Positions 2,505 to 47,029 are shown, counted from the stretch's first letter. The stretch: DNA of 47,773 bases from a phage (GCA_036604865.1 GCA_036604865.1_4856.1), one strand, 5' to 3'. Numbers and translations are program-made. The notes: generated by a model from the letters alone, not told the origin.

Positions 2505-2533
2505 TTGACGTAGATTGATGGGGCGTTTATAGT
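2505..2533 (+). promoter_or_regulatory. sigma70-type promoter TTGACG-17-TATAGT with TAGATTG motif abutting the -35 hexamer
   Basis: ttgacg at 2505-2510, 17-nt spacer, tatagt at 2528-2533; lies upstream of the plus-strand cassette 2575-4458. Confidence 0.55.
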
Positions 2534-2574
2534 TAGTGACGTAGAAACAACAATAAATGTTAGAGGTGATGAAA

Positions 2575-2748
2575 ATGGAAGGTGAAACAGAAGTTGTGGT
2601 TGTTGATGTTTTTTATCAAGCATCAGACGAAGGCATTCCAGCTCGCTGGTGCTGCGAGTTTATTCGCGATGGATGGACTGATTGTGAATATTTTGATAAC
2701 TCAGAAGATGCATATAACTATGCTTACTCACATGGATTTCAAGGATAA
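2575..2748 (+). CDS. small acidic Cys-containing protein
   Basis: ORF track 2557-2748; ATG at 2575 is best placed after SD agagg; first gene of the plus cassette. Confidence 0.45.
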   Translation: MEGETEVVVVDVFYQASDEGIPARWCCEFIRDGWTDCEYFDNSEDAYNYAYSHGFQG

Positions 2749-2751
2749 ACA

Positions 2752-3561
2752 ATGAAAACACTCAGCAAAATCTATTCAGACAAAGAAACGCGCAACGGCA
2801 TCGCTGTTAACAAAACCTATCTCGTGCCAGTGGAGCAAATATATCTGGAGCCGGGATACAACATCCGTGAAGCAGATGAGCAGCATGTGGAATATTTCGC
2901 GCAGTGCTGGGAATCAGGTCAGCCATTGCCAGCATTAACAGTTATTCCAGATGAGAAGGGAATCCGCATTCTTGATGGGCAGCATCGCTATCTCGGCGCA
3001 CTGCGTGCCATTGAGCGTGGCGCGCCAATCGCTCGCATTGAGTGTAAGGATTTCACTGGAGATGAGGCGGATAAAATTGCCTTCATGGTGTCATCCAGTC
3101 AGGGCAAGCAGCTTGACCCGTTTGAACGTGCAAAGGCTTACACGAGACTGAAAGGCTTTGGCTGGACGAATGAAGAAATCGCCAAGAAGGTGGGTCGTTC
3201 AGTATCTGACGTGCAGATGCATCTGTCACTGGGTGATGTGCCTGCGGAAGTAAAAGCGCGAATCAGTGCCGGGCAAATCAGCTATGCAAATGCCGTAGCA
3301 GTAACGCGTGAACATGGCGATGATGCGGTAAAAGTTATCGACGAGGCAGTCGAAGAGGCCAAAGCACAAGGCAAGGATAAGGTCACTGCAAAAGTGCTCA
3401 AGTCGAAAAAGATTAAGCCAGTAGACCGCCTGATTGAGTTATTGAAGCCAGCCGACCATGTAATTCTCCCCGCTGGTCATGTAGTGGCTGAGGACGAGGA
3501 ATTTATTCAGATTCCTGTTGCTGATATTCACGAGGTTATGGCAATTCTGGAGAAGATGTGA
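2752..3561 (+). CDS. ParB-like nuclease domain protein
   Basis: 269 aa; ILDGQHRYLGALRA matches the ParB N-terminal domain core (DGxHR); SD aagga upstream. Confidence 0.6.
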   Translation: MKTLSKIYSDKETRNGIAVNKTYLVPVEQIYLEPGYNIREADEQHVEYFAQCWESGQPLPALTVIPDEKGIRILDGQHRYLGALRAIERGAPIARIECKDFTGDEADKIAFMVSSSQGKQLDPFERAKAYTRLKGFGWTNEEIAKKVGRSVSDVQMHLSLGDVPAEVKARISAGQISYANAVAVTREHGDDAVKVIDEAVEEAKAQGKDKVTAKVLKSKKIKPVDRLIELLKPADHVILPAGHVVAEDEEFIQIPVADIHEVMAILEKM

Positions 3562-3752
3562 TGAGCAAGTATGAAGAGTTGGACTTGAAGATATTGCAAA
3601 TGCTTTCTGTTAAACCAACCCCTGTTTTTGATATATGGCTTAAGTTTCGTGATGATGTTAGAAACATTACGGTTATTGATCGGAGGATGCAGGTGCTGAA
3701 AAAGAAAGGTTTTGTGTACAACGTTCGTGGATGTGGTTGGGTTAAGCTATGA
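3558..3752 (+). CDS. hypothetical small protein
   Basis: 64-aa ORF with ATGA overlaps to both neighbouring genes. Confidence 0.45.
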   Translation: MMSKYEELDLKILQMLSVKPTPVFDIWLKFRDDVRNITVIDRRMQVLKKKGFVYNVRGCGWVKL

Positions 3753-3922
3753 CACCAGAACAATTCATCGAAAAACAACTTCGTGCCAAGCTGCCTGAAA
3801 TCGACCAGATGGCAATTGATGCGGCAATTCAGTATTACAAGCGCAATCAGAGCGCAAAGAAGGGTGGCATTTTTGAAGAATGCCTGAAGGTTGCAAAGCA
3901 ACACATGATTAAGGTGAAGTGA
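3749..3922 (+). CDS. hypothetical small protein (57 aa)
   Basis: Not in ORF track; fills the gap between 3752 and 3922 with start/stop overlaps on both sides; MTPEQFIEKQLRAK... Confidence 0.35.
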   Translation: MTPEQFIEKQLRAKLPEIDQMAIDAAIQYYKRNQSAKKGGIFEECLKVAKQHMIKVK

Positions 3923-4458
3923 TGAAACTAAAAATCAGCAAACTATTACTTGAATCAGCGTTAATATTTCAGGCGCGCAACGATATTCGTTACTATCTGA
4001 ACGGTATCTGCTTTATGCCTGATGGTCGCATTGCATCAACTGACGGTCATCGCGCATTTATTGGTTGCAGCCATGACAATACGCTGACAAAAAATGTGAT
4101 TATCAAGATTGGCAAATCTCCAACAAAACGCTATGACTACGCCATCATTGACACCAAGTCGAAAATTGCAACGTATCATGATGAAGCTGGCGTGATGGTT
4201 GGCGATGGTATCAGCGAAGAGATTGATGGCCGATTCCCTGACATTGACCGCGTGATACCAAAAGAAACGAAAGCAGCAGAGGAAATAGGATTCAATGCTA
4301 GCTACCTTGTTGATATTGAGAAAGTGGCGAAGCTGTTTAATCCTAAATTCTGTGGTGTCAAATTTGAACTGAATGGGAATACAAATGCCGCAGTTTGCTG
4401 TCTTAGCTCGCCATCTGGAGAGACTGCGAAGATTGTTGTTATGCCTATGCGTCTGTAG
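3922..4458 (+). CDS. hypothetical protein
   Basis: ORF track 3919-4458; ATG at 3922 overlaps the previous stop (TGATG); no domain recognised. Confidence 0.5.
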   Translation: MKLKISKLLLESALIFQARNDIRYYLNGICFMPDGRIASTDGHRAFIGCSHDNTLTKNVIIKIGKSPTKRYDYAIIDTKSKIATYHDEAGVMVGDGISEEIDGRFPDIDRVIPKETKAAEEIGFNASYLVDIEKVAKLFNPKFCGVKFELNGNTNAAVCCLSSPSGETAKIVVMPMRL

Positions 4459-4464
4459 CAATCA

Positions 4465-4490
4465 AAAGCCCCATCACGGGGCTTTTCTTT
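4465..4490. terminator. bidirectional rho-independent terminator (agcccc-atcac-ggggct plus T-run)
   Basis: Hairpin 4467-4483 flanked by A-run and T-run, between convergent genes ending at 4458 and 4493. Confidence 0.55.
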
Positions 4491-5549: not shown

Positions 5550-5636
5550 TTAAATATCCCCATGAGTTAATGCTGGTTAATTGTAGCACACTAGTTACTA
5601 TCGTGGTAATATAAAACCAAATTAGGAGTGACTTTT

Positions 5637-6443
5637 ATGAAAACAAGAAAAGAAGCCGCGCAAGAAGCAAGGGTTGCTGGACTGAAGCAATTTGTGTGTG
5701 AATGGATTCCATGCTCCGTATGTGGTGGAACTGTGTTTTTTACAGCATCAGGCGGATGCAAGCATTGCGTATACGAAAGAACGAGAGCAAGAAGATCTAC
5801 TGCTGAATACAAAGAAAAGATGAAGCAGAAAAACAAAGAAGAGTGGTTAAAAAATAAAAACAACCCAGAATTCAAGGCTATTAAGAAAGAAAGAGATAGG
5901 GAGTTTCACAAGAAATACAAAAAAAGATTAAGCTCAGACATAAAAAAGATGGAGGAATTTCTCAGAAGAAGAAGGGATGCGTACCGTAAATGGTATTACT
6001 CTGAGAAAGGCAACAAAAAGGCTCTGGATAACGTCAAGCAATGGCAAAAGAAACACCCCCACCACGTGTTCCTAAGGAAGATGCTTGAAAGAATTGATGT
6101 GAGGTTGTCTGACGTTGCCATTGATAAAACCGTTGATGATGTGCTTGGTTATACAAAAAGTGATTTTATAAAACACATAGAGTCAACTATGGAGCCATGG
6201 ATGAGCTTTGATAATCGTAGTTGCTGGCATATAGATCACATACTTCCAGTGGACTGGTTTGTAAAAAACAACCTTGTCTACCCAGAACTGGTGAATTCAC
6301 TACATAACCTCAAAGCTGAGCCAGCAGAGTTCAACTGGAAGAAAAACAGGAAGTGGCTGCGCAAGGATATGACGCAATGGGAATTCTGCTACATGCTGCA
6401 ATATATGGTGTATGGTGAAATCAGGTATAAAGAAGGGGGCTAA
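5637..6443 (+). CDS. HNH homing endonuclease
   Basis: HNH core CWHIDHILPVDWF; N-terminal Cys cluster; ATG at 5637 after SD aggag; lone plus-strand gene inside the head block. Confidence 0.65.
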   Translation: MKTRKEAAQEARVAGLKQFVCEWIPCSVCGGTVFFTASGGCKHCVYERTRARRSTAEYKEKMKQKNKEEWLKNKNNPEFKAIKKERDREFHKKYKKRLSSDIKKMEEFLRRRRDAYRKWYYSEKGNKKALDNVKQWQKKHPHHVFLRKMLERIDVRLSDVAIDKTVDDVLGYTKSDFIKHIESTMEPWMSFDNRSCWHIDHILPVDWFVKNNLVYPELVNSLHNLKAEPAEFNWKKNRKWLRKDMTQWEFCYMLQYMVYGEIRYKEGG

Positions 6444-9435: not shown

Positions 9436-9558
9436 TTAGTTTGTGGTCGAATTATAACACAGGGAGATATAGCACCATGAGGCGGTAGCCAGTGCAAACA
9501 ATGGTGAGTCTGTGAGCGCGTATAGCGTGAGAAAGTAAGTGATAGGGATTATATTCAT
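9436..9558 (-). CDS. small hydrophobic peptide (40 aa)
   Basis: Not in ORF track; SD aggagg six nt before ATG; MNIIPITYFLTLYALTDSPLFALATASWCY... Confidence 0.25.
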   Translation of the reverse strand: MNIIPITYFLTLYALTDSPLFALATASWCYISLCYNSTTN

Positions 9559-9760: not shown

Positions 9761-9945
9761 GATCTACCCCTGTTTTCTTTGTAGAGTGCGTCGCAGATTT
9801 TTTGATACTCCCTCTGAAACCAGTCTATGTTCCTGTTGTAATCACTGCCTATTGCCTCAATCTTCTTTGTCGCCATTGCGCTTGCTGCATTAATCAATGC
9901 AACCTGAACCTCAATAGGCAGTTCTGGAAATTTTGGGCTGCTCAT
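9757..9945 (-). CDS. hypothetical small protein
   Basis: 62-aa ORF in ORF track; coupled to upstream gene. Confidence 0.4.
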   Translation of the reverse strand: MSSPKFPELPIEVQVALINAASAMATKKIEAIGSDYNRNIDWFQREYQKICDALYKENRGRS

Positions 9946-10268
9946 AACCCTGCCTCCTGCTTTGCGCGGTGAACGTATGACATAAACTTGCCAATCGGCA
10001 TCTCCTTGCGGATTTGCGCCAGAATAGCGCCGTGCAGCATCCTTTCTTCGCCAAAATACAGCTTATCAAGACGGGTTTTAATAAGTGCTCGCGTGCGCTT
10101 CATGTGGTCGCGTGCCTTAAGTGCTTTCTCATGCCATACGCGATCATTCTTCTTATCAGCATACTGCAGTTGACGATCGACAGTTTCGATTTCAAACGCC
10201 AGCTGCACGTCGTAATCTTCAAGCTGAATGATGTCTGCCTTCATAATGTCATTTAATTGGATAATCAT
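9942..10268 (-). CDS. hypothetical protein
   Basis: 108-aa ORF, charged, no motif recognised. Confidence 0.45.
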   Translation of the reverse strand: MIIQLNDIMKADIIQLEDYDVQLAFEIETVDRQLQYADKKNDRVWHEKALKARDHMKRTRALIKTRLDKLYFGEERMLHGAILAQIRKEMPIGKFMSYVHRAKQEAGL

Positions 10269-10676: not shown

Positions 10677-11130
10677 GATGACCCCTTACATTGCGAAGCA
10701 GTGAATTGAACAGGTTGTTCACATTTACTTCATGCTCCTGCCATGAGTAACGCCACAGCTTCTTGTGGTGGTCATAGCTTCGCGTCACATCGCCGTTATG
10801 AAACATAATGCGAATGCGGCTTTTCACGATTCGGTAATCAATGCCAGTTGCGGCGCTGATTTCTTTCACTTCTGCGCCAGCACTATCAAGCAAATGGCAC
10901 TTAATCGCATCATCAATGCCTGCCGCATCATCAGAGACGAAATACTTATACTGCCATTTTCCACCGCGAATCACTGACTTCTCGCGGCGAATGAAGCCAA
11001 GTGCAAGCATCTCATGCAGACGATGCGTTGTAGTGCTTGAATGCTTTCCGCCGCAATTCTTCTCAATGTATGCGCGCGTTGCTCCTGGGTGATTCATAAT
11101 CACGCGCATTATTTGCGATTTATAGTCCAT
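10642..11130 (-). CDS. putative DNA-binding protein (winged-helix-like)
   Basis: 162 aa; two helix-turn-helix-like segments (IMRVIMNHPGATRAYI... and EISAATGIDYRIVKSRI...); inference from pattern. Confidence 0.4.
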   Translation of the reverse strand: MDYKSQIMRVIMNHPGATRAYIEKNCGGKHSSTTTHRLHEMLALGFIRREKSVIRGGKWQYKYFVSDDAAGIDDAIKCHLLDSAGAEVKEISAATGIDYRIVKSRIRIMFHNGDVTRSYDHHKKLWRYSWQEHEVNVNNLFNSLLRNVRGHHGESQTQETRV

Positions 11131-11377
11131 AATCGCGCTCCTCTGCTGCCTGATTGAAGTCGTCTGCGGTGTAGAGGTGTCCGTTGCGGGTATTCCATCT
11201 CTTTACGGCGTTTTCCCGTAAGCTCCAGTAGTCAGTTCCATTTCCACACATCGCACAGGCAACAAAAAATACACCTCCTTGTATATCGCTATAAGCCTCA
11301 TTTTCTCCGCAAAACGGACACTCCAGCAACCCTTCGTCGTTCATCATCGGCATATGTGGTGCGCTCATTTTACCCAC
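11120..11377 (-). CDS. Lar-like restriction alleviation protein (zinc ribbon)
   Basis: LECPFCG...CAMCG...AVKRWNTR matches the Lar family pattern CPFCG...C..CG...A..WN.R. Confidence 0.5.
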   Translation of the reverse strand: MGKMSAPHMPMMNDEGLLECPFCGENEAYSDIQGGVFFVACAMCGNGTDYWSLRENAVKRWNTRNGHLYTADDFNQAAEERDYGL

Positions 11378-11559
11378 TCCCCAAGATTGTTAAATTTAGG
11401 TGTATTGCCAGACCAGTCGATAACATCCTTCTGCTGACTGCGCTTGCGTTGCAGTCGGTTACGCACTTCTCGCAATTCGCACTCCAGCCATTCGCGAGTG
11501 CGTTCAACTTCATTTAGTCGCTGGATTAGCGATTCTTCGTACAGTTCGTCATGCGCCAT
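11365..11559 (-). CDS. hypothetical small protein
   Basis: 64-aa ORF, charged and helical-looking. Confidence 0.4.
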   Translation of the reverse strand: MAHDELYEESLIQRLNEVERTREWLECELREVRNRLQRKRSQQKDVIDWSGNTPKFNNLGEWVK

Positions 11560-11817: not shown

Positions 11818-11844
11818 TTCCACATCACCTTTTTCGTTGTGGTA

Positions 11845-11890
11845 CAATCTACGTCAATAAGTATTGACTAAATGATGTAGATTGGTCAAC
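11845..11890. promoter_or_regulatory. divergent regulatory region with TTGACGTAGATTG motif (minus orientation) and TTGACT plus GATGTAGATTG (plus orientation)
   Basis: caatctacgtcaa at 11845-11857 is the reverse complement of the motif at 2505 and 14624; promoter geometry here is not canonical. Confidence 0.4.
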
Positions 11891-11917
11891 AATAATTTTC
11901 GAGAAGGAGTAGTAAAT

Positions 11918-12112
11918 ATGCCAAGACCACGACGCGAGCCGATGGACATTATCACCAGCATTGTGGAGAAGCGGCAGCCGCTGACACTCCGTGATGTTCG
12001 CTACTTTGCCCGTTGCTATGTGGCACTGGCTGATATGCCGAAAGATGAGATGTACGATTTGATTCGTGAGAATTTTGATGTTGATGCAAATAATCGGGTG
12101 ACGATGAAATGA
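11918..12112 (+). CDS. hypothetical small protein
   Basis: ORF track 11882-12112; ATG at 11918 has SD aaggag eight nt upstream. Confidence 0.45.
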   Translation: MPRPRREPMDIITSIVEKRQPLTLRDVRYFARCYVALADMPKDEMYDLIRENFDVDANNRVTMK

Positions 12113-13130: not shown

Positions 13131-13155
13131 CAAGCCCCTTATGGGGCTTTTTTAT
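13131..13155. terminator. rho-independent terminator (agcccc-ttat-ggggct then ttttttatt)
   Basis: Hairpin 13133-13148 and T-run; terminates the plus cassette; overlaps the 3-prime end of the spanin gene. Confidence 0.55.
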
Positions 13156-14311: not shown

Positions 14312-14579
14312 ACCAGTAAACCTCTTTTTCAGCTTTGCGTTTTGCTTTGTTGTCGGTCTTCTCGCCCCACACAATAAAGTGCGCAACGGCACATGAGAAG
14401 CAGCGGAGATTGTGTTTCTTCAGGAGCGTTGACTTGCGGAACGTGTCAATGCCAATGTCAGTGGCAAGGCTTGTCAGCGCATCAAACTGATTCTGTGTTG
14501 TCTCGGTAGTGATGTAAGGCGATATATCAACGGCATCGGTGATTCCAAGCGTCTCCACGCCGCGTTGCGATAGTTTCAT
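14301..14579 (-). CDS. hypothetical protein upstream of endolysin
   Basis: 92-aa ORF with strong SD aggagg five nt before ATG; not obviously membrane-spanning. Confidence 0.45.
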   Translation of the reverse strand: MKLSQRGVETLGITDAVDISPYITTETTQNQFDALTSLATDIGIDTFRKSTLLKKHNLRCFSCAVAHFIVWGEKTDNKAKRKAEKEVYWYGY

Positions 14580-14623
14580 TCTGCCTCCTGTTCAAATAAT
14601 GATTAATTCTATCACAACAGGTA

Positions 14624-14652
14624 TTGACGTAGATTGAGTGGTGGTGCATAGT
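14624..14652 (+). promoter_or_regulatory. sigma70-type promoter TTGACG-17-CATAGT with TAGATTG abutting the -35
   Basis: ttgacg at 14624-14629, catagt at 14647-14652; same architecture as the promoter at 2505. Confidence 0.55.
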
Positions 14653-14680
14653 ATCTACATCAAATAGAGAGGTGGTAAAC

Positions 14681-14872
14681 ATGAGTACGCTTGAATTGGT
14701 TGAACGCTCGATAATTACGCTGTGGGTTCTTTCTTTGGCTTTTGGTTTGTGCGCGTTCTATAAACCATGGGCATGGCAAAGAAAAAGCTACTTCGCCATA
14801 ATTTACGGCCCATTCTGCGTTATGAGCATGATTGCGGCGCTATTCTTCGTTATTGATTTGGTGTGGTCATGA
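14681..14872 (+). CDS. small two-helix membrane protein
   Basis: ORF track 14672-14872; ATG at 14681 after SD agagaggtgg; two hydrophobic helices. Confidence 0.5.
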   Translation: MSTLELVERSIITLWVLSLAFGLCAFYKPWAWQRKSYFAIIYGPFCVMSMIAALFFVIDLVWS

Positions 14873-15015
14873 TGGTAATGGTCAAATTCAAAGAAAACGG
14901 ACGCTGCGGAATGTTCGGACTTGAGCAAATCAAAATCCGCCCATGCGGCAAGGTGGCTGCGCCATTTGGCCTGTTGCAGATGCGTGAATGCGAAATTATT
15001 GAATATATTAAGTGA
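14869..15015 (+). CDS. hypothetical small Cys-containing protein (48 aa)
   Basis: Not in ORF track; ATGA overlap with the previous gene; MMVMVKFKENGRCGMFG... Confidence 0.3.
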   Translation: MMVMVKFKENGRCGMFGLEQIKIRPCGKVAAPFGLLQMRECEIIEYIK

Positions 15016-15023
15016 GGTTGGTG

Positions 15024-15323
15024 ATGAAAGAATTTAAAGGTACGCATGGCCCGTGGAATTACTGCGCTGATGAGCCAGATTGGGTTACAGATAGCAATGA
15101 CAATATAGCTGTAGCAAGGGTCACTCGTTACAACGCGGATGCGGAAGCTCAACATGCAAACGCAAAATTAATCGCAGCATCACCGGAACTGCTCGCAGCA
15201 CTCCAGCAATTACTGGAAATCTACGACGACAACTCCGACAAAGTCTGGACAACATCAAGCAAGCGTCGCGCTCTGGGTAATGCGCGTGCGGCGGTTAATA
15301 AGGCATTGGGAGAAACAAAATGA
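15024..15323 (+). CDS. hypothetical protein
   Basis: ORF track 15012-15323; ATG at 15024 after SD gaggttggtg. Confidence 0.5.
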   Translation: MKEFKGTHGPWNYCADEPDWVTDSNDNIAVARVTRYNADAEAQHANAKLIAASPELLAALQQLLEIYDDNSDKVWTTSSKRRALGNARAAVNKALGETK

Positions 15324-15964
15324 AACTTATCGACTTGTTAGTTCAAGAATTGCCTAAGCGTGGCGGGTGGCCTAATGGTGCGGAATACTGTCATCTAACA
15401 CAATACGATCGCCACTGCTTAACCATTGTTTTTTCTCACAAGCAGGTTGGCACAGGAAATAATTCAACAATATCAAAGGAAGAAATGGTTTTTTCTGGTA
15501 TTGGTTACCTTGGCGATACATTGTATGGATGCATAGTTACAGCTAAAGAATACGAATCCGCACTCTCAGCATCGAAAAAGCCAACATGGAACGGAGAAGG
15601 TCTTCCTCCGGTTGGTGCAAAAGTAGAATTCTTCATTAATCCAAAGTTAAGATACCGCAATGCCTGGATTCCTGATGCCGGCACTGAAATGGAAGTTGTG
15701 GCGCACAAAACAACAACGGACGGGAACGATGTTGCTGTTTGCTATTGGGATGATGATGGCGCTGGTCGGTCATGCTGCTTCGTACCGGAAAGCCTAAAAC
15801 CACTACGCACAGAAGCAGATAAGAAACGAGATGCCGCGGCTGAGGCCATTGATCGGTATATGCCTGAATTTATCCCTGACACACCAAATGAGTATTATCA
15901 CGCAAAGAAAATTTACGACGCCATCGCAGCAGGCAAGATTCCCGGCGTGAAACTGGATGATTAA
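15320..15964 (+). CDS. hypothetical protein
   Basis: 214-aa ORF, ATGA overlap with the previous gene; no domain recognised. Confidence 0.5.
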   Translation: MKLIDLLVQELPKRGGWPNGAEYCHLTQYDRHCLTIVFSHKQVGTGNNSTISKEEMVFSGIGYLGDTLYGCIVTAKEYESALSASKKPTWNGEGLPPVGAKVEFFINPKLRYRNAWIPDAGTEMEVVAHKTTTDGNDVAVCYWDDDGAGRSCCFVPESLKPLRTEADKKRDAAAEAIDRYMPEFIPDTPNEYYHAKKIYDAIAAGKIPGVKLDD

Positions 15965-16040: not shown

Positions 16041-16070
16041 CAAGCCCTCACTTCGAGGGCTTTTTGTTTG
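16041..16070. terminator. rho-independent terminator (gccctc-acttc-gagggc then tttttgtttg)
   Basis: Hairpin 16044-16060 and T-run after the plus cassette; overlaps the 3-prime end of minus gene 16048-16998. Confidence 0.5.
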
Positions 16071-16998: not shown

Positions 16999-17899
16999 TT
17001 CCCTTTTCCTCCATGCTTTAAAACCAAATCAGCCGCCTCGTGGGTTGATATATTGAAAAATTCGCTCGCCCCATCAAATCCGGTTAATCCTGCATTTTTA
17101 TGTTTTATTTCTTTATGTATCATTGATTCAGCCCTTCTCGCGTCAGCCCATGATGGGAATGAGTGCTCAGCAACCACGGTAACAGTTTTCCCTGCTGATT
17201 TTGATATGCTCTTCATTCTTCTTTTGGTGTTGTTGCTTATCCCGATCTTGCACATGCCATCCATTTCAGCCACATATAAGTTTGCAGGCTTAAACCCATA
17301 AGCAGTGCATTTATTGCAACCTGATCCCCTTAAGTGTGAGTTTGGTGTCTGGTAAAAATCGCCATGGATATGACATGTTATACATACTTTCCTTGAGCTT
17401 TTCACATAATTAACTTCTCGTATGAGTATCTCTTCCCATGAATTGCTTTTGCTTTTGTTATGAATGATGCTTTATTGTCGCTGAATTTGTCGGACAGATG
17501 CTCAAGTTTGCACAAGGGGCAACCATTACCTGATAAATGGTTGGCTGGTTGCTGGGAAAAATCACCGTGCTTTTGGCATGTTATTACCACCTTTCGGTGA
17601 GTTCCGGTATATACGCACTTGTCATATGAATATTTATCACCATGGACCATTTTAGCCTTGGAGATAAATTCATCATTTGATGCCATCAATTTTCTTGCCC
17701 GAACATCTCTAGCGCAAAGTTCGCAGCCGTAGCCAGCGAGATGGCACTCCGCTTTTTGAGTAAAGTCGCCATGTTTTCTGCACGTTATTGTTACTTGATT
17801 CTTCGTTCCGGAGAATGCCAATTTATCATAAATGTACTTGTCACCATGTTTTTGCTTGGCGCGAGAAATGAAGTCTTCCGTGGTGAGTCTTTTAGCCAT
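16995..17899 (-). pseudogene. T5orf172 (GIY-YIG-like) domain protein with three N-terminal Cys/His repeats, split into two ORFs by a single-nucleotide frame change near 17403
   Basis: Repeats FI(S/T)(R/K)AK..HG.KY.Y.K....(11 aa)..ITC..HGDF.Q....HL.G.GC..C occur three times; the third spans the ORF junction with correct spacing only after a -1 shift at ATGTGAAAAG; C-terminal LYVAEMDGMCKIGISNN..RR resembles the T5orf172 core. Confidence 0.5.
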
Positions 17900-17993
17900 G
17901 ATTAACCCCGTAGTAGGTTCGTAGATTGAGGATGCAGCAGGGTGTCTACGTTCACCTTTTCGTCTGGCCGGACTAGCTGCACTTGTGATTATA

Positions 17994-19418
<1,425 letters not shown>

Positions 19419-19422: not shown

Positions 19423-19454
19423 CAATAAAAAATCCCATCACGTTGGATGGGATT
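19423..19454 (-). terminator. rho-independent terminator on minus strand (atcccatc-acgtt-gatgggat then T-run)
   Basis: Read on minus strand the hairpin 19432-19453 is followed by ttttttatt; located just upstream of the portal gene. Confidence 0.5.
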
Positions 19455-19488
19455 ATAACACGAGCTTGCAGTGGCTATGGTTGATGGC

Positions 19489-20302: not shown

Positions 20303-20329
20303 AGTGATATCTCCGGTAAACCTGATGTA

Positions 20330-26056: not shown

Positions 26057-26077
26057 CAGGAATGCGTTAAAAACGTG

Positions 26078-29538: not shown

Positions 29539-29613
29539 AAATTGACCCTTGATTGTTGGTGTAGATTGAGTATAAGCTAACTGACGTAGAAACATCAACA
29601 AAGGTTAGTTGCT

Positions 29614-31539
29614 ATGACGCATAAAATAGACAAGATGATTTCAGAGATTGACATTAACTTACTGAAATCCTGCTTGGATACTGGTGATATCGAGCCAAGA
29701 CCCTATCAGTGGTTGATATATAAGTTAACTGGTGATGTGATTCGTCATTATGTTGGCCCGAGCTATGTAACGGCAAGTGTAGGTAGTGGAAAGTCACTGA
29801 TGATTGCCATGATAGCAAAGCGTTTTCAGGAAATGGGATATTCAGGGATGATTTTATCAAGACAGGGAGAAATAGTGGAGCAGGATGCGGAAGAGCTATG
29901 GTCGCTTGGTGTTAGAAACTCGCTATTCAGTGCTTCGTTGGGTAGGAAAAGTTCTACTTATCCAATAATCTGTGGTTCTGAGGGTACTGTTATAAATGCT
30001 TTGTTTGATAAAAAGGATGAGTCAGGGAATGTTATTGCAAAAGGTGCGCTCTCTGACTTTTGCCCAAGATTCCTGCTTATCGATGAAAATCATATGGTTA
30101 ATGACATTGATGTTGTTAATAATGGTGATACGCAGTATGCAGTGATAATTAATGAGCTAATGAAAAGGTGCAAAGATAAGCACGGCCATGAGTTGAGAAT
30201 AATAGGTTATACAGGCTCACCGTTTCGCGGAACTACATCAATAAAAGGCGCTTTCTGGAAGAAGGAGATTATCAACATAGACACCAAATACATGGTTGAA
30301 AACGGTTTTCTTGTGCCAACAATTTTTGGTCTTCATGATGTTGATAGTCTGCATTATGACCTTTCAGATTTTCATGGTTCAGATGTTGATGGCACTCAGG
30401 ACTTTACCTCCGAGCAGCTCAAGCAGATGCAAAAAGAAATTCTTGAGCAAGGTACGTTGACGCAGAAAATCATGCTCAAGGTTATGGAGTTGACTAAAAA
30501 CAGAAACGGCGTACTGATTACATGTGCTGGTAAAAAACATTGTCAGGAGGCGGCAAAATACCTACCAGAAGGGAGTTATTCAATAGTTACAGAAGATATG
30601 GGGTCAAAAGCCAGAAGGAAGGCTCTAAAAGATGCATACACCGGGCGCAAAAAATTCACATTCCAGATAGCCGCCCTTACCACTGGCGTAAATATACCGT
30701 TATGGGATACGAGCTGCATATTACGAAAAATAATGTCGCTCACCCTTCTTGTTCAGTTGCTTGGTCGCGGAATGCGCCTGCTGAAGAAAGAGCAAATTGA
30801 TGCCGGGTATCATAAAGAAGACCATTTGGTTCTTGATTTCTCTGGCACGATGTTTGAGCTTGGTCAGTTATATGAAGACCCAATTCTGGAAGAAGCTGAA
30901 GCGCAGCGTTCAAAACGCATTGGTGAACAGGTTCCGTGTCCGAAATGTGGAACAATGAACAGCCCATATGCGCGCCGCTGCATTGGCAAAGATGCATTGT
31001 CGACAGATGGTAGATGCGAAGAGTTTTTCAGTTACATTCGCTGTGGATTTGACAAGCACGGAATCCGTATTTTTGATGATGGCTGCGGCACTAAAAACGA
31101 CCCTACAGCTCGCTATTGCAGACATTGCGATCACGTTTTGCGTGACCCGAATGCGGCACTGAATGAGCGTGCGTATACAGATAATGAGTGGGCTGATGTT
31201 ATGGATTTCAAAGTCCAGTTAACGAAGGATGGAGATGGGATTTTGTATCGCTACTGGATTAATCGTTGTGATGGCAAAGAGGGATGGGCTAATGAGGTTT
31301 TCTATCCATACGGCGGCGCAACTCACATGAAAAACATGTTCAAGGCGAAGGCCATCTTCCCTCACCTTGATGATAAATCAATGGCTGGGAGAATCCTGAA
31401 ATGCCAGAACGCAAAACAATTCATGATGTATGCGGGGTTAATTAAAGCGCCAAAACGCATCACGCATCGGATTAATGATAAAGGTCGCGACATTATCCAC
31501 AGAAAAGAATTTAAAGGAGAACAAAGTGAAGCAGCTTGA
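29614..31539 (+). CDS. superfamily 2 DNA helicase (DExH-type)
   Basis: Walker A ASVGSGKS, motif II LLIDENH, C-terminal Cys-rich zinc-finger-like region; 641 aa. Confidence 0.75.
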   Translation: MTHKIDKMISEIDINLLKSCLDTGDIEPRPYQWLIYKLTGDVIRHYVGPSYVTASVGSGKSLMIAMIAKRFQEMGYSGMILSRQGEIVEQDAEELWSLGVRNSLFSASLGRKSSTYPIICGSEGTVINALFDKKDESGNVIAKGALSDFCPRFLLIDENHMVNDIDVVNNGDTQYAVIINELMKRCKDKHGHELRIIGYTGSPFRGTTSIKGAFWKKEIINIDTKYMVENGFLVPTIFGLHDVDSLHYDLSDFHGSDVDGTQDFTSEQLKQMQKEILEQGTLTQKIMLKVMELTKNRNGVLITCAGKKHCQEAAKYLPEGSYSIVTEDMGSKARRKALKDAYTGRKKFTFQIAALTTGVNIPLWDTSCILRKIMSLTLLVQLLGRGMRLLKKEQIDAGYHKEDHLVLDFSGTMFELGQLYEDPILEEAEAQRSKRIGEQVPCPKCGTMNSPYARRCIGKDALSTDGRCEEFFSYIRCGFDKHGIRIFDDGCGTKNDPTARYCRHCDHVLRDPNAALNERAYTDNEWADVMDFKVQLTKDGDGILYRYWINRCDGKEGWANEVFYPYGGATHMKNMFKAKAIFPHLDDKSMAGRILKCQNAKQFMMYAGLIKAPKRITHRINDKGRDIIHRKEFKGEQSEAA

Positions 31540-31942
31540 CAGCGGTATATGGGTATTTGATAGCGGTTATCGTGGTGAGTGTCCGAAAGAAGAGACTGAG
31601 CAGATGATGTACGGTTGCTGGATGGACTATCAATTCCCAAATGCAATATGGTTTCACGTTCCAAACGAGACGGGAACAAAAAGCGGACCTCAGTTCGTTC
31701 TTAAACGCCAGAAAATGGGCGTAAAACGAGGCGTTAGCGATGTAATCATACTAAGTAATGGTGTAGCTCATTGCGGAGCAGTAATGGAGCTTAAGCGAGC
31801 TGACAGAACAAAATCAAAGGTATCAAAAGAGCAAGCTACGTTTCTTGAGAAGGTGGCTGATCAAGGAAAGTTCGCGGCCATAGCCTACGGCGCTGAGCAA
31901 TTAAAAAAAGCTACACTTTTCTATTTTGGAGTTGACAAGTAA
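31526..31942 (+). CDS. VRR-NUC domain nuclease
   Basis: PD-(D/E)xK-type core GVSDVIIL...MELK; GTG start at 31526 after SD aggag (ORF track 31475-31942). Confidence 0.55.
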   Translation: MKQLDSGIWVFDSGYRGECPKEETEQMMYGCWMDYQFPNAIWFHVPNETGTKSGPQFVLKRQKMGVKRGVSDVIILSNGVAHCGAVMELKRADRTKSKVSKEQATFLEKVADQGKFAAIAYGAEQLKKATLFYFGVDK

Positions 31943-31984
31943 ATCATACCACTTTACAATCCAATCATACCAAAGAGGTGTCGC

Positions 31985-32488
31985 ATGGATAAAGAATATG
32001 TAGATGAATGGCTTGTTGTTAATGCGGATGAGGGCACTGTTTTTTGGCGAAAGAGTAGAGGGCTAGCGAAAGCAGGTAATTCTGCAATACATAAACATGA
32101 AATCACTTCCAGAGGAGGAGCGAAATACAAAGTTATATCATTCGGAAGGAGACAGTGGTTATTACATAGATTTATCTGGACGTATGTTAACGGTGAAATA
32201 CCTGATGGAATGGTTATCGATCACATTGATGGAGACACAAGCAATAATTCAATAAAAAACTTAAGAATTGCCAGTAGGTCTGAGAGTTCATTTAACAAAG
32301 GGATGTTTAAAAATAACACATCTGGCGTAAAGGGTGTTTATTGGGATAAGAGAAATAAGAAGTGGATGGCGTACGGAAGAATAAATGGAAGGATGAAAAA
32401 TCTTGGAAGGTATTCCTCAATTGAGGATGCTAGAAATGCCGCAGATACATTCAGGCGAGTTAATTTTAAGGAATTTTACAGGCGGTGA
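31985..32488 (+). CDS. HNH homing endonuclease with AP2 DNA-binding domain
   Basis: HNH_3-type motif VIDHIDGDTSNNSIKNLR followed by AP2-like GVKGVYWDKRNKKWMAYGRINGRMKNLGRYSSIEDARNAA. Confidence 0.65.
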   Translation: MDKEYVDEWLVVNADEGTVFWRKSRGLAKAGNSAIHKHEITSRGGAKYKVISFGRRQWLLHRFIWTYVNGEIPDGMVIDHIDGDTSNNSIKNLRIASRSESSFNKGMFKNNTSGVKGVYWDKRNKKWMAYGRINGRMKNLGRYSSIEDARNAADTFRRVNFKEFYRR

Positions 32489-35865: not shown

Positions 35866-35900
35866 GAAAAGGCCCCGTGAGGGGCCTTAGTTATTTTTAT
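35866..35900. terminator. bidirectional rho-independent terminator (aggcccc-gtga-ggggcct, T-runs on both sides)
   Basis: Hairpin 35870-35887 between convergent genes ending at 35812 and 35903. Confidence 0.55.
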
Positions 35901-35902: not shown

Positions 35903-38275
35903 CTACCCCCTATCCGCCCACCAACCAGTACTCGTTCTGTAAAGCATAATAGCCGCCGCCGAAAGCGTCTTATTAACGCGGATGCGTCTTTCAATAGGTA
36001 TTGATGTACTCTCCTGCAAGGTAATCGGCTGAGAAGACGTAGTGCTGACTAATAATACTTTATCCGCATTACCCGTTATCTCATTCAGGGTCATGCTAGC
36101 GCTTAGATAATAAATACCTGCGTTGTTTGAGTTTATGAATGTTGTTGGAGTTGAAACGGTTAGTGTCACTGCCGAGGTTGAGAGCTGCACTGCCGAGCCG
36201 AAAATGTTGGCTTTGAGCGTACGAGAATCTGAATTCCAGAACAGACTCAATTGAGGGATGTCATAAGAAGCACATAAAGCATTTTCCTGTGAACCAATAA
36301 CCGACGGTAACTTCCCCCAACTTTTTGCATAGTTACTAACGCCAGAAAATGCCCCGATAGCCCGGTGTTTAACCCTCAAGAAATTGAAAGTGTTTTGGCC
36401 TTCTGTGATAGACATAAAACCACCAGAACCAACTGGGGTTATTGTGCTGTACCCCGTATAGAGTCCTGGGTCATCAAACATAGTTCCTGTGAACTCAGTC
36501 CAGGAAACCCCGTTATTAGTTGAAACCCATGTCCTTAAATCATTTCTGAATCGATAGTCGTGGTTGTCACCTGTCGGCGCAGTTACGAGCAACACATCAC
36601 GGGAGTCACCATTAGACATTGATGAATATAAGCACATGCCCGCTTTACAATTCGTGGTGTCAATAGATGACTGATAAATCCAATTTACGGAGTCAAAACT
36701 TCGATAGACACGCTGCCGCCCTTTTGTGACGCTGGTGTCGTCGTTATAATAATCACGGATTAGCGCCAGAAGAGATCCATCCCCAAGCTGGGTTATCTGT
36801 AGTTCACCAGCCCCGTTAGACCCTTCTGTCCCACCAGCCAGGATGAGTTGACGATTGTATTTGAAAGTCCCATCGGCGTTTTCAGAAACACGGATATAGC
36901 CGTGATAGAAAACGCCACCATTGAGAATCCAGGCATAAGGGACAAGAAGGTCTCCGTCTCCGGTTACGCAGAGAGGAGATGGAGAGAACCAGGCAGAAGT
37001 AGCATTTTCGGGCTTAACTGAGGTGGTAATATTTACCGGGTTAGTCCATTGGGTGCCGTAGTTATCGCTATAGGTCATCCAGTTCTGGAAAGTAGTGTTA
37101 GGGTCGAAACCAGTAGAGCCATGTCCTACCCCTACCCTGCCGCGCGCGGTGGTATAGAAACACCAGATGCGTCCCCTTTTGTGGTCAAAAGCAAAGCATG
37201 GTTCTGCTGCTTGCTGCTCCCCTTCTGTTGAAATAACAATTGGCGGGTCAAAAGATAGATTGTTGTTTGAGTTTCTAATCTCTATTCTTGACGTTTGGTT
37301 CGCATCTTGACCGGGGTCAAAAGATGTACCAACCAGCACTGTGTACATAAGAAAAACGCGGTTGTTAAATGAGGTGTGAACCATCGACGGCTCTCGATAG
37401 AACTCACCAGTATTTGCGGTGATAGTAGTGTAATTATCTGAATACAAGATGCCACCAGTATTTTTATTAATATATACTGGAAGATTTTTTTGGACTGAGT
37501 CCTGCCCGACGGGTAGAATTTTTACCGTGCCTGACCCGGTGATAGTGACTTCACCATCTGTGGTGTATGTCGGGGCGAGATTTGACTCAATTTTATAAGT
37601 ACCAGTGGGGATTAGAGCCCCGCCAGCCTGGATAAATGCTGCGGTAGAATCGGCAACGCCTGTCCTGTCAGCCCCAAAATCGATCACATTAAACGGTGAG
37701 GTAGCCTTTATCGCTGACATGGCAGAAGGTGAGTCGATCAATATCCGCCACTGCGTACCGCCACCAGTAGTTACCGTATCCCCTGCCTTAAGGGTTACCG
37801 TCTGACCGCTAGATGTAGTCCCGGTAAAAATGTCACCTACGGTATTGAATGTTAATCCAGAAAGAGAACCCAGCTGTCCACGTAATGCTGCATCACCAAC
37901 ACCAATCCACGCACCAACACCAATACCACCAGATGTTTCTGGAGTTGATCCGGCAGGAACAGTTTTAGGAAACTCACCGTCCCAGCGGTAATACTCTCCA
38001 TTGGTTTCATCCTGCAAAACATGATTTGGAAGAGTTAATTCATTGTTAGGAAGTGGCGCGCCAAGCTGAAAGCTCTTTAAAGTGATATATCCATAGTTGC
38101 GGATAGCTTCTTCTGCTGTGTACTGAAATCCAGCAATTGTCCAGCGGCGAACTCCGAACCTGTCGGTGTAGTAATGCGCGTCAGATGTCACTACCTCGTC
38201 GATTTTCCCTGCATTAAATTTAAGGTCGCGCGGGTCTTCTGATGGGATTGGTTTATTGGTTGGTGTGGTAGCCAT
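35903..38275 (-). CDS. tailspike / tail fibre protein with Asp-box (BNR) repeats, probable glycan hydrolase
   Basis: 790 aa, last gene of the tail operon; degenerate Asp boxes YSDNYGTQW and STNNGVSWT; SD aggag before ATG. Confidence 0.6.
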   Translation of the reverse strand: MATTPTNKPIPSEDPRDLKFNAGKIDEVVTSDAHYYTDRFGVRRWTIAGFQYTAEEAIRNYGYITLKSFQLGAPLPNNELTLPNHVLQDETNGEYYRWDGEFPKTVPAGSTPETSGGIGVGAWIGVGDAALRGQLGSLSGLTFNTVGDIFTGTTSSGQTVTLKAGDTVTTGGGTQWRILIDSPSAMSAIKATSPFNVIDFGADRTGVADSTAAFIQAGGALIPTGTYKIESNLAPTYTTDGEVTITGSGTVKILPVGQDSVQKNLPVYINKNTGGILYSDNYTTITANTGEFYREPSMVHTSFNNRVFLMYTVLVGTSFDPGQDANQTSRIEIRNSNNNLSFDPPIVISTEGEQQAAEPCFAFDHKRGRIWCFYTTARGRVGVGHGSTGFDPNTTFQNWMTYSDNYGTQWTNPVNITTSVKPENATSAWFSPSPLCVTGDGDLLVPYAWILNGGVFYHGYIRVSENADGTFKYNRQLILAGGTEGSNGAGELQITQLGDGSLLALIRDYYNDDTSVTKGRQRVYRSFDSVNWIYQSSIDTTNCKAGMCLYSSMSNGDSRDVLLVTAPTGDNHDYRFRNDLRTWVSTNNGVSWTEFTGTMFDDPGLYTGYSTITPVGSGGFMSITEGQNTFNFLRVKHRAIGAFSGVSNYAKSWGKLPSVIGSQENALCASYDIPQLSLFWNSDSRTLKANIFGSAVQLSTSAVTLTVSTPTTFINSNNAGIYYLSASMTLNEITGNADKVLLVSTTSSQPITLQESTSIPIERRIRVNKTLSAAAIMLYRTSTGWWADRG

Positions 38276-38314
38276 TATAATAAATGCTCCTTTGTGAATT
38301 TGATGTATATTGTA

Positions 38315-42115
<3,801 letters not shown>

Positions 42116-45207: not shown

Positions 45208-45247
45208 CCTGAATTTGACTGATGTTGATTATATCATCTCAGTGGTG

Positions 45248-45276
45248 TTGACACCTGCGAGGTGGTGATGTAGATT
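45248..45276 (+). promoter_or_regulatory. sigma70-type promoter TTGACA-17-TAGATT
   Basis: Consensus -35 ttgaca at 45248-45253, 17-nt spacer ending gtgatg, -10 tagatt at 45271-45276; 35 nt upstream of gene 45312. Confidence 0.6.
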
Positions 45277-45311: not shown

Positions 45312-45506
45312 ATGGATGTTGTTATTTTGTTGTTTTTTGTTGGATTAGTGATATTTGCTTATCTTCTCCCATCATTTGTGGCATTGCAAAGAAAGCACAC
45401 AAACACGACAGCAATCTGTGTACTGAATATTCTTGTCGGGTGGAGCTTTATTGGGTGGGTTGCAGCACTTGTCTGGGCATTAGTTAACAGTGGCGACAAA
45501 AAATGA
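45312..45506 (+). CDS. superinfection immunity (Imm-like) membrane protein
   Basis: YLLPSFVALQRKHTNTTAICVLNILVGWSFIGWVAALVWAL matches the superinfection-immunity family signature (LPS..A..R.H.N...I..LN.L.GW..IGW..AL.WAL). Confidence 0.6.
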   Translation: MDVVILLFFVGLVIFAYLLPSFVALQRKHTNTTAICVLNILVGWSFIGWVAALVWALVNSGDKK

Positions 45507-45646
45507 ACGAACAAACAAAAGCCGACCTGATTTTCTATACTGAACTGTATGTTGATGCAGGTTACGATTACGAAGAAGCCGAGCAGATGGCGAAAGACTT
45601 GCTTCGTGTGATTGGCGTGATTTTTGACGAGGATAAAGTGATATGA
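45503..45646 (+). CDS. hypothetical small acidic protein (47 aa)
   Basis: Not in ORF track; ATGA overlaps with both neighbouring genes. Confidence 0.35.
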   Translation: MNEQTKADLIFYTELYVDAGYDYEEAEQMAKDLLRVIGVIFDEDKVI

Positions 45647-45996
45647 AAAATTATGAAGATATGAGTGATTCACAAATAGCGCAAAAGGTTTTCTTTTTTG
45701 TGAGTGGCAATCTTTGCCCAAAAGGAGGGTTGGCTCATATCAGTTCAGATGGCTTTTTCTTTTTTGATGACAAGAACATTAAGCGAAAGTTTGACCCATG
45801 CAATAATCCAGAGGATGCCGGTCCTATTATTATTGAAAACAGAATTGGCACCATTCCAGCACCAGATAATGGATTATGGAAAGCCGCACACAGAAAGGTT
45901 GGCAACGATGATACGCCATACCATTTTACTCAAGATAAAAATCCACTCCGCGCCGCCATGATTGTCTTCCTTAAAATGAATGAGGATAAATTATGA
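45643..45996 (+). CDS. hypothetical protein
   Basis: 117-aa ORF in the plus cassette inside the tail module. Confidence 0.5.
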   Translation: MKNYEDMSDSQIAQKVFFFVSGNLCPKGGLAHISSDGFFFFDDKNIKRKFDPCNNPEDAGPIIIENRIGTIPAPDNGLWKAAHRKVGNDDTPYHFTQDKNPLRAAMIVFLKMNEDKL

Positions 45997-46202
45997 GCCA
46001 GTTGATTAAGTGCAGTGAGAGGATGCCACCAAAAATGACAGGGGTTATTGTAGCTACAGAGTTTGGTCATCGAGGCGACTGGCGGATGAAGTGGGCTACT
46101 TATATCCCGGGGCATCCTGACGCTGATGACGGGTGGATAATTCCAGGCGCTTCGTGGAAGCCATCTCACTGGATGCCTCCGCCTAAGCCACCGCAAGAAT
46201 AA
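45993..46202 (+). CDS. DUF551-like phage protein
   Basis: CSERMPPKM...W...HWMPPPKPP resembles the DUF551 pattern (Trp-rich, C-terminal HWMPLPxPP). Confidence 0.5.
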   Translation: MSQLIKCSERMPPKMTGVIVATEFGHRGDWRMKWATYIPGHPDADDGWIIPGASWKPSHWMPPPKPPQE

Positions 46203-46203
46203 A

Positions 46204-46231
46204 ACAAAGCCCCTTTCGGGGCTTTTTCTTT
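46204..46231. terminator. bidirectional rho-independent terminator (agcccc-tttc-ggggct then T-run)
   Basis: Hairpin 46208-46223 between the plus cassette and the major tail gene end. Confidence 0.55.
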
Positions 46232-46232
46232 A

Positions 46233-46949
46233 TCAGGATACGGTGCAAGCCGTGCTGATGATAATTTCAGGGTCAGTAGATGAATCCGTTACTGTGACGG
46301 TGTACACACCAGCGGTAGGACTTGTCAGCGTTGCACCAGATTCACCACCAACAACTACGCCATCTTTGCGCCACACGTAGGTGTAAGGAGAGACGCCTCC
46401 TTCAACAGCGACAGTTAACGGACTGCCGGTGCTGCCAGTTGGCGATAAGTCGGTAGTAAATTTTAGAGGCTCAAGGCTTTCGACGGTGACGCTGTCAGAA
46501 TCGTAAACCTTAAACTCAAGGCTGCCGGTTACGATGTCGTTCGTGCCACCTTCGTAGCTGATACTGGTGATGTTGCAATACGCAGTAACGATAGTGGCGC
46601 CAGTTACCTCACGCACCCACAATGAAGGCTGGCGACGTGCTTTAAGTTCAGTGGTGTAAATCTCAACCAGGCGATGGAAGCCAAATTCATCGCTCGGGTC
46701 ATTCTTGCGGATTTCAACCTCTGCGCTGATGGTCATATCAGAGCTGGTAACGAGAGTGGAAACAAAGCCGCCAGTGGTATCAGCTTCCGACGTAGTGGTC
46801 TGCGGCGAGTAGTCAACGCCTTTACTGGTGGTTGAGCCTAAATACTTCCAGTCTCCCGCCTCTGGAACTGCGTCACCACATCCCTCAGCAAGGAACAGTC
46901 GGGTCATGCGACCGACCAGAACACCTTTATCATTTGCACAAATAGCCAT
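46233..46949 (-). CDS. major tail protein with C-terminal Ig-like domain
   Basis: 238 aa with SD ggaga; C-terminal Thr/Val/Ser-rich beta-type segment TVAVEGGVSPYTYVWRKDG...TVTVTD resembles Big_2-type Ig domains on lambda V-like proteins. Confidence 0.65.
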   Translation of the reverse strand: MAICANDKGVLVGRMTRLFLAEGCGDAVPEAGDWKYLGSTTSKGVDYSPQTTTSEADTTGGFVSTLVTSSDMTISAEVEIRKNDPSDEFGFHRLVEIYTTELKARRQPSLWVREVTGATIVTAYCNITSISYEGGTNDIVTGSLEFKVYDSDSVTVESLEPLKFTTDLSPTGSTGSPLTVAVEGGVSPYTYVWRKDGVVVGGESGATLTSPTAGVYTVTVTDSSTDPEIIISTACTVS

Positions 46950-47000
46950 TTCGATCTCCGAATTGTGTTAGCTGCTAACGTGGTGATTATATCACAGGTG

Positions 47001-47029
47001 TTGACAGTGATTATTTTGTGGTGTAGATT
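47001..47029 (+). promoter_or_regulatory. sigma70-type promoter TTGACA-17-TAGATT driving the non-coding region and tRNA
   Basis: ttgaca at 47001-47006, 17-nt spacer ending gtggtg, tagatt at 47024-47029. Confidence 0.55.

Follow-up and report, generated by a model that had tools for sequence, protein, structure and literature searches.

A recurrent asymmetric box in predicted σ70 promoters of a Skatevirus-group siphophage is a candidate shared operator

We analyzed a 47,773-nucleotide stretch of phage DNA (GCA_036604865.1, sequence GCA_036604865.1_4856.1; hereafter the window, with positions counted from its first letter) and found that a short asymmetric sequence, which we call the box, recurs in its intergenic DNA and is placed in the core of almost every predicted σ70 promoter for non-structural genes, in this phage as in its relatives. 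On balance, we consider it probable that the box is a shared cis-acting operator through which one protein shuts this promoter class by steric exclusion of RNA polymerase. The box is strongly enriched, its exact copies are confined to intergenic DNA, and it is conserved in related phages, including phages that lack one or the other of the two recognizable regulator genes of the window.

The ends of the window carry an exact 127-bp duplication (1-127 = 47647-47773), which presumably arose when a circularly permuted genome was assembled with overlapping ends, and the window thus represents a circularized complete genome with a true length of 47,646 bp. Its DNA is ~90% identical to that of siphophages of Salmonella, Escherichia, Shigella and Klebsiella (Deseoctovirus, Swiduovirus, Macdonaldcampvirus and others), and ~200 deposited genomes match it. 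We treat the phage as a virulent enterobacterial siphophage of the Skatevirus group, which the BASEL authors name 'Skatevirus and relatives', with Roufvirus as the outgroup, and whose members they characterized as small siphoviruses with no lysogeny reported (10.1101/2024.09.12.612763). Neither an integrase nor a CI-like repressor was seen among annotated relatives or among the ~40 proteins scanned, a subset of the open reading frames (ORFs). Searches of the literature returned nothing published on gene regulation in these phages and no transcriptome or 5'-end data sets for the group, and no description of the box was found by motif string, by genus names or in the BASEL paper.

Enrichment and extent of the box

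A preliminary description of this DNA had reported a repeated TAGATTG/GTAGATT core, found in every instance between genes or at a gene start. Genome-wide counts against shuffled sequences bear out the enrichment of the 8-mer GTAGATTG (10 copies versus 1.37 expected, with 0 of 100 shuffles reaching 10) and of GTAGATT (13 versus 4.5), whereas TAGATTG alone is not significantly enriched (11 versus 6.7). The intergenic fraction of the genome, taken from a crude gene call, is 10.5%, and all ten copies of the 8-mer are intergenic (p ~1.6e-10); the shorter words break this rule with two copies in coding DNA, GTAGATT at 15218 (minus strand) and TAGATTG at 37256. The earlier list of positions was accurate in all but two entries, as the copy placed at 20337 is really GTAGATTA at 20327-20334 and the one placed at 26026 occupies 26027-34. 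In an unbiased k-mer screen, no word was more strongly enriched in intergenic DNA than GTAGAT(T), whether k was 6, 7 or 8.

The alignment of non-redundant sites from five genomes shows that the information spans ~13 bp, TGAYGTAGAWW(S)A, with no dyad symmetry in the box and uninformative flanks. In the window, the full element can be written TGRYGTAGAWW(S)A, and aligned contexts separate into two flavors, TGAC-GTAGA and TGRT-GTAGA. Box calls rest on exact and one-mismatch matches to the consensus; a low-threshold iterative refinement of a position weight matrix was discarded, as it drifted into a generic coding-like GATGATGA pattern. The 9-mer TGRYGTAGA occurs 17 times in the window where ~1 copy is expected, and the exact 11-mer TGRYGTAGAWW occurs 16 times, in ten regulatory regions, with 16/16 copies intergenic.

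Position of the boxes within predicted promoters

All exact boxes lie between -35 and +8 of a predicted σ70 promoter. Across the six motif-bearing genomes of our set (the window, swi2, Bas78, ASO78B, SB28 and Klebsiella phage VLCpiS13e), box starts cluster at fixed offsets from TTGAC: +1, where the box overlaps the -35 (26 boxes); +18, where it supplies TAGATT as the -10 (16); +30-32, where it covers +1 of the promoter (10); and +7/9, within the spacer (8). Two arrangements noticed earlier proved exact. The motif abuts the -35 at 2505 and 14624, and the corresponding TTGACGTAGA occurs five times (2505, 11857(-), 14624, 20398 and 26056(-)) where 0.05 copies are expected; the motif acts as the -10 in TTGACR-N17-TAGATT, which occurs four times (20398, 26056(-), 45248 and 47001) against 0.00 expected. 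The predicted promoters P2505, P11864, P11889(-), P14624, P20362(-), P20398, P23128(-), P26056(-), P29598(-), P45248 and P47001 each match 9-10 of 12 σ70 positions. The box promoters combine near-consensus -35 elements with 17-bp spacers, and so should fire without an activator.

On five promoters (P2505, P14624, P11889(-), P20362(-) and P29598(-)), a pair of boxes brackets the -10, one at about -34/-30 to -24/-20 and the other at about -6 to +8. At P2505, TGACGTAGATT (2506-2516, +) overlaps the -35 (TTGACG, 2505-2510) and TGACGTAGAAA (2537-2547, +), which is conserved in the Klebsiella phage, lies at about -4 to +8 relative to a -10 at 2528-2533 (TATAGT); the predicted transcription unit that follows (2575-4458) includes the ParB-like and RusA genes. 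At P14624 (TTGACG-17-CATAGT, 14624-14652), which would drive the unit 14681-15964, TGACGTAGATT (14625-14635, +) overlaps the -35 and an inverted TGATGTAGATA (14652-14662, -) covers the start at about +1. The leftward promoter P11889 (TTGACC-18-AATACT, 11860-11889) carries TGACGTAGATT (11846-11856, -) at about -3 to +8 and TGATGTAGATT (11873-11883, +) in its spacer, the latter being shared with the spacer of the rightward P11864 (TTGACT-18-AACAAT, 11864-11893). At 29557-29592, the boxes TGGTGTAGATT (29557-29567, +) and TGACGTAGAAA (29582-29592, +) bracket the overlapping -10 elements of two divergent promoters, one for the primase (TTGATG-18-TATACT, 29569-29598(-)) and one for the helicase, whose -35 is TTGATT (29549-29554) and whose -10 is weak (TATAAG or TAAGCT). 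The copies at 11845-11890 and 29562 had been regarded as non-canonical in geometry; they fall inside predicted σ70 promoters of the opposite strand, while the third copy so described, at 17922, does lie apart from such a promoter, in a leader.

The cluster of four copies noted earlier near 20330-20430 resolves into four boxes within 20323-20426. Two of them, TGATGTAGATT (20323-20333, +) and cGGTGTAGATT (20346-20356, +), are inverted with respect to the leftward P20362 (TTGACC-17-TAGTAT, 20334-20362) and lie in its spacer and at about -6 to +5. The other two belong to P20398 (TTGACG-17-TAGATT, 20398-20426, +), with TGACGTAGATA (20399-20409) on the -35 and TGATGTAGATT (20416-20426) forming the -10; this promoter is predicted to drive a lineage-specific ORF (20445-21056). 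The same arrangement of a pair on the -35 and the -10 is seen at P26056 (TTGACG-17-TAGATT, 26028-26056, -), with TGACGTAGAAT (26045-26055) and TGATGTAGATT (26028-26038), respectively, ahead of a leftward small-ORF operon that runs from 25997 down to 23203; this promoter is conserved in swi2, Bas78 and SB28. A single box forms the -10 of P45248 (TTGACA-17-TAGATT, 45248-45276, +; TGATGTAGATT, 45266-45276), ahead of 45312-46202, and of P47001 (TTGACA-17-TAGATT, 47001-47029, +; TGGTGTAGATT, 47019-47029), where a tRNA-Met gene (47642-47718) that spans the circular junction lies ~600 nt downstream. Finally, TGGTGTAGAAT (23109-23119, -) sits in the spacer of an internal promoter (TTAACG-18-TACAAT with a TG extension, 23099-23128) that follows a terminator (23140-23158) and would drive a putative terminase small subunit (TerS) gene and the terminase large subunit (TerL) gene.

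In total, 9/16 exact window boxes supply a promoter hexamer, so that operator and promoter would be encoded in the same bases, with the box doubling as the -35 (T-TGAC-G) or as the -10 (TAGATT). A bias in orientation appears only among boxes of this kind, because the hexamer fixes their direction. Elsewhere orientation is free: each of the four possible orientation combinations is found among the bracketing pairs; on P11889(-), P20362(-) and P29598(-), the box in the spacer points against transcription; and the box near +1 points along transcription on P2505 and P11889(-) and against it on P14624, P20362(-) and P29598(-). The footprint position is thus conserved and the orientation is not, which is the behavior of an operator rather than of a directional promoter element or an L5-type stoperator. 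Where the box serves as the -10, the upstream TGRYG (-17 to -13) is conserved as well, including in the Klebsiella phage, and we know of no σ70 contacts that explain this conservation.

The genes behind the box-bearing promoters are the ParB-like and RusA genes, the primase gene, the helicase-to-SSB (single-stranded DNA-binding protein) recombination and replication operon, Lar-like and MarR-like genes, and runs of small ORFs. The preliminary description is refined in this respect, as boxes are confined to a single class of promoters, that of the non-structural genes.

Stretches of the type CAACAATAA(T)AAATGTT adjoin boxes at 2548-2556, 11887-11895 and 20383-20391, which account for three of the four exact CAACAATAA copies. 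In the Klebsiella phage, the copy that follows the +1 box of P2505 is unchanged. Such stretches may be leader or UP-like elements, or may be due to chance.

Conservation and turnover in related phages

Each of the six motif-bearing genomes contains 13-18 copies of TGRYGTAGA where ~1 is expected, for instance 16 versus 1.1 in swi2 and 15 versus 1.1 in the Klebsiella phage, where they occupy homologous regulatory regions. No such boxes occur in T1, the nearest outgroup by its helicase (~45% identity), and the myovirus ECO1230-10 shows no enrichment (3 copies versus 0.5 expected). Across eight orthologous regulatory regions, the window and the Klebsiella phage are 78% identical at box positions and 45% identical elsewhere (Fisher p = 7e-17). 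At the helicase promoter, the box has shifted relative to the hexamers among relatives, which carry TTGACtgTGATGTAGAAT...TAATTT, and has been kept nonetheless. In swi2, SB28 and the Klebsiella phage, some boxes stand in tandem with a 10-bp offset. An origin of the promoter family by simple duplication was rejected, because the promoters differ in their spacers and flanks and yet keep the box, at positions that shift.

Where a gene has been inserted in one lineage only, boxes lie just upstream of it, as seen for the SB28 anti-repressor, the SB28 homing endonuclease and the window ORF 20445-21056. Compared with phage C1, the window carries as insertions an endonuclease VII-like gene (5637-6443, +), an HNH gene (17402-17899, -), an HNH_3+AP2 homing endonuclease gene (31985-32488, +) and the same ORF 20445-21056 (+), which matches phrog_10141; in the window and its relatives, inserted genes usually lie directly behind a box-bearing promoter or come with boxes of their own. 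The best σ70 match of the genome (TTGACA-17-TACAAT, 31932-31960; 11/12) has no box, and the tandem boxes of swi2, SB28 and the Klebsiella phage sit at the equivalent site. This promoter and its gene appear to have been swapped together, because the downstream HNH-AP2 gene is only ~40% identical to that of the relatives.

A second promoter class

Extended -10 elements of the form TGnTAnAAT, without a -35, precede each structural and lysis operon; 12/15 copies are intergenic (p = 6e-10), and 11 face minus-strand operons of late type, the terms early and late being assigned here from gene content. The element TGCTAAAAT (2488-2496, -) faces a structural operon, and further copies on the minus strand lie at 5580-5588, 9451-9459, 14606-14614, 17988-17996, 19452-19460, 23099-23107, 38309-38317, 40888-40896, 45228-45236 and 46986-46994, with one on the plus strand at 11840-11848. 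The two promoter classes are often found back to back in divergent regions. Just 8 bp separate the P2505 -35 from the TG of the leftward element 2488-2496, a gap so short that polymerase probably cannot hold both promoters together. The distance from the boxes to the extended -10 promoters is inconstant (-17 to -27, -25 to -36, -40 to -50, -45 to -55, or no box at all), and the idea that the boxes serve an activator of late promoters is weakened by this lack of constant geometry.

Proposed mechanism and its alternatives

The preliminary description had suggested a regulator or host-factor site overlaid on promoters, and a site of this general kind is also what we favor, given that the same box is found at the -35, in the spacer, at the -10 and at +1 of predicted promoters, in either orientation, and is conserved in relatives. 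In the proposed mechanism, the asymmetric ~13-bp box would be written into the core of -35/-10 promoters for replication, recombination and small host-takeover ORFs, and a sequence-specific protein, probably phage-encoded, would read one box per DNA-binding unit. By occupying one or two boxes between -35 and +8, this protein would exclude RNA polymerase, and the whole promoter class would be switched off together once the protein had accumulated, while structural and lysis operons would be read from the extended -10 promoters, which need no -35. We infer protein binding, repression by that binding and the temporal 'early' nature of these promoters from the sequence. A more elaborate version, which we regard as possible but rather doubtful, describes a genome-wide switch in which the operator is read singly by a small lineage-restricted protein without a detectable helix-turn-helix (HTH), the promoter hexamers are deliberately co-encoded with it, and the transition from early to late proceeds by competition with the back-to-back extended -10 promoters; candidates for such a protein include, for example, DUF7540, DUF7334 and the 64-aa product of 11918-12112.

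Several observations weigh against the operator reading. The promoters, the transcription starts and the early or late assignments are all predicted, and a generic σ70 scan of the genome did not rise above chance. A degenerate inverted pair, GTAGATTG at 17921-17928 (+) and GTAGA at 17945-17949 (-), occupies the leader that separates the HNH gene (17402-17899) from the extended -10 promoter at 17988-17996, and is the only pair outside a -35/-10 promoter. Boxes also lie at -25 to -36 of the leftward extended -10 promoters 2488 and 14606, where they might hinder these divergent promoters, an effect that a simple 'early off, late on' scheme does not explain. Lastly, no binding protein was identified, and the two recognizable regulators, the ParB-like and MarR-like proteins, are dispensable for retention of the motif. 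The MarR-like protein was rejected as the binder on the evidence of Bas78, which has no homologue (tblastn E <= 1e-3) yet carries 15 boxes. Scans of ~40 proteins against Pfam, PHROGs and NCBIfam revealed no regulator beyond these two. Requiring that a protein be present in all six motif-bearing genomes and missing from both T1 and ECO1230-10 leaves ~12 small, non-structural, lineage-specific proteins (3749-3922, 9942-10268, 11120-11368, 11365-11559, 11918-12112, 15024-15323, 20096-20302, 22636-23055, 23203-23376, 25449-25631, 31526-31942 and 45503-45646), none of which has a DNA-binding family match or a recognizable DNA-binding domain. Two of these candidates were modeled. The 68-aa product of 20096-20302(-) is modeled as an acidic HTH-like bundle (AlphaFold2 predicted local distance difference test, pLDDT, 82), but it is unconvincing as the binder, with weak Foldseek matches (E >= 0.27), an acidic putative recognition helix and an isoelectric point (pI) of 5.0. 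The DUF7540 protein (25449-25631(-); 60 aa, pI 10.5) is modeled very confidently with a beta-alpha-beta-beta fold (pLDDT 95), for which no structural neighbor and no significant PDB match was found. Homologues of DUF7540 occur only on contigs of ~45-58 kb, the genome size of this phage group.

The ParB-like protein would be an obvious reader of the boxes, in a regulon resembling that of KorB on RK2. Its gene (2752-3561) lies directly downstream of the two-box promoter P2505, its domain matches are clear (HTH_ParB, 2.5e-11; KorB, 7e-6), and it carries the annotation of a transcriptional repressor in some records. We nevertheless consider this explanation very improbable, and a ParB-less clade led us to reject the ParB/KorB-like protein as the binder. 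In SB28, the representative examined (region 14380-14830), the ParB-like gene and its neighbors are deleted and a 40-aa remnant persists behind an intact two-box promoter, yet the genome keeps 15 boxes versus 0.9 expected, among them the two on what was once the ParB promoter. The deletion is common to at least nine Salmonella phage isolates, which are 93-100% identical across the junction; a small ORF homologous to window 3749-3922, downstream of the deletion, is kept in this clade. In addition, the box is non-palindromic, and ECO1230-10 has a homologue of the ParB-like protein with 44% identity yet no box enrichment.

Alternatively, host RNA polymerase itself might read the box as part of a strong early promoter flavor, with no separate binder, much as the early promoters of phage T5 carry conserved blocks outside the hexamers. 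Within the box, TGAC could indeed serve as a -35 core and TAGATT as a -10, a hexamer is supplied by more than half of the exact window copies, no binder was found, and the ASO78B record labels the same sites as plain σ70 promoters. This explanation is unlikely, however, as boxes are also inverted, placed in the spacer or at +1, or arranged as 10-bp tandems, for which σ70 has, to our knowledge, no sequence-specific contacts; positions -17 to -13 before TAGATT and -29 to -24 after TTGAC are likewise conserved without a known polymerase contact, and the same 11-mer is kept at every promoter position. A site for a host protein conserved in Escherichia, Shigella, Salmonella, Klebsiella and Citrobacter, exploited to tune early promoters, seems unlikely to a similar, if slightly greater, degree. 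It would agree with the several enterobacterial genera that motif-bearing phages infect and with the absence, after the presence/absence filter, of phage candidates with a recognizable DNA-binding fold, but T1 and ECO1230-10 share these hosts and show no box enrichment, and the motif follows one phage lineage. We know of no enterobacterial transcription-factor consensus that matches the box, which we take as a lead rather than a test; the known sites of DnaA, FNR/CRP, IHF and Fis do not fit either. Positive control, finally, would make the box a site for an activator or for σ remodeling in the style of T4 MotA/AsiA, marking 'middle' promoters or switching on the extended -10 promoters that diverge from it, in the manner of phi29 p4 and lambda CI. 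The -35-side box is centered near -29, boxes reach -25 to -36 of the extended -10 promoters 2488 and 14606, and the genome has a two-class promoter layout. Even so, we judge this quite improbable: consensus -35 elements are already present, activation is not possible from a box that forms the -10 or covers +1, the spacing to the extended -10 promoters varies, and no MotA or AsiA match was found among the scanned proteins.

Other elements of the genome

Two near-identical 28-nt GC-rich palindromes (TCGTGGGGCAGGTyGGTTGCCCCACGTT) lie 231 bp apart at 26110-26137 and 26341-26368, both within the largest intergenic region (25998-26462), between the early leftward and helicase operons. They are partly conserved in the Klebsiella phage and could be terminators or part of a replication origin. 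A family of strong intrinsic terminators (AAAGCCCC...GGGGCTTT), often bidirectional, ends almost every unit where convergent units meet (78-98, 4464-4486, 13132-13149, 16042-16062, 21062-21083, 28558-28583, 35869-35888 and 46206-46225).

Comparison with known systems

Mycobacteriophage L5 and its Cluster A relatives carry more than 20 asymmetric 13-bp operator or 'stoperator' sites in non-coding DNA, promoters included, which are bound singly by a monomeric immunity repressor (PMC9283540). The box resembles them as a multi-copy, asymmetric, non-palindromic site of ~13 bp, here with 16 exact 11-mers. However, L5 is temperate and encodes a 183-aa immunity repressor, and no such gene is evident in the window; its sites are mostly stoperators inside operons, away from promoters, where they block elongation, whereas the exact boxes all accompany predicted promoters; and its sites work in one orientation, whereas boxes occur in both orientations at equivalent positions. 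Among virulent enterobacterial siphophages, T1 and Stevie carry 16-22 copies of a private, mainly intergenic 22-bp repeat whose role is unexplained (PMC4319613). This T1-like repeat, VWATAGCAYKWWTTGYTAAAAV, has no sequence similarity to the box. T1 holds 22 sites of its own repeat (for example 4344-4362 and 36444-36462), and ATAGCAYKWWTTGYTAAAA has no match in the window at up to three mismatches; the T1 repeat is built on a palindromic core (TAGCA-N5-7-TGCTA), with an extended -10-like TGCTAAAA at its end, whereas the box has no palindrome. Between the T1 genes for primase and helicase lies one annotated as a transcriptional regulator (ST23).

RK2 KorB is a ParB-family repressor with 12 operators, 13-bp palindromes at varied distances from their promoters. 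The reuse of one operator at many promoters and varied distances is shared, and the window encodes a KorB/ParB-HTH protein, but the box is asymmetric and persists in phages without a ParB-like gene. The box fails defining features of each of these systems: orientation and operon location for L5, sequence for T1, and palindromy and ParB dependence for KorB. Lambda Cro/CI and phi29 p4 offer likenesses in operators over early promoter cores, in divergent back-to-back promoters and in a second class without a -35; those systems have one or two control regions, whereas the window has about ten promoters and no constant activator geometry at its late-type promoters. In T4, the MotA box at -30 stands in for an absent -35 and keeps a constant spacing to the -10, whereas the window promoters have TTGAC -35 elements and variable box positions. 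In the ASO78B record, homologous sites are annotated as 'TTGACA(N15-18)TATAAT with 2bp mismatch', but this annotation misses the box that they share, its additional conserved bases, the copies that are inverted or lie at +1, and the second class of promoters. The signal is solid and conserved, and it represents a familiar kind of phage control element that is unsurprising in principle.

Significance

Several Skatevirus-group phages have been described as candidates for therapy or biocontrol (PMC12001532, PMC11769527), and phages of the group are often isolated on Salmonella, E. coli, Shigella and Klebsiella. For these phages, the box and the second promoter class provide a concrete, testable map of transcription units, with a candidate regulon of about ten promoters, and point to a compact promoter/operator module of possible use in phage engineering. 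Together with the private repeat of T1, the box suggests that small virulent siphophages may generally carry multi-copy control elements private to their lineage, a feature that has received little study.

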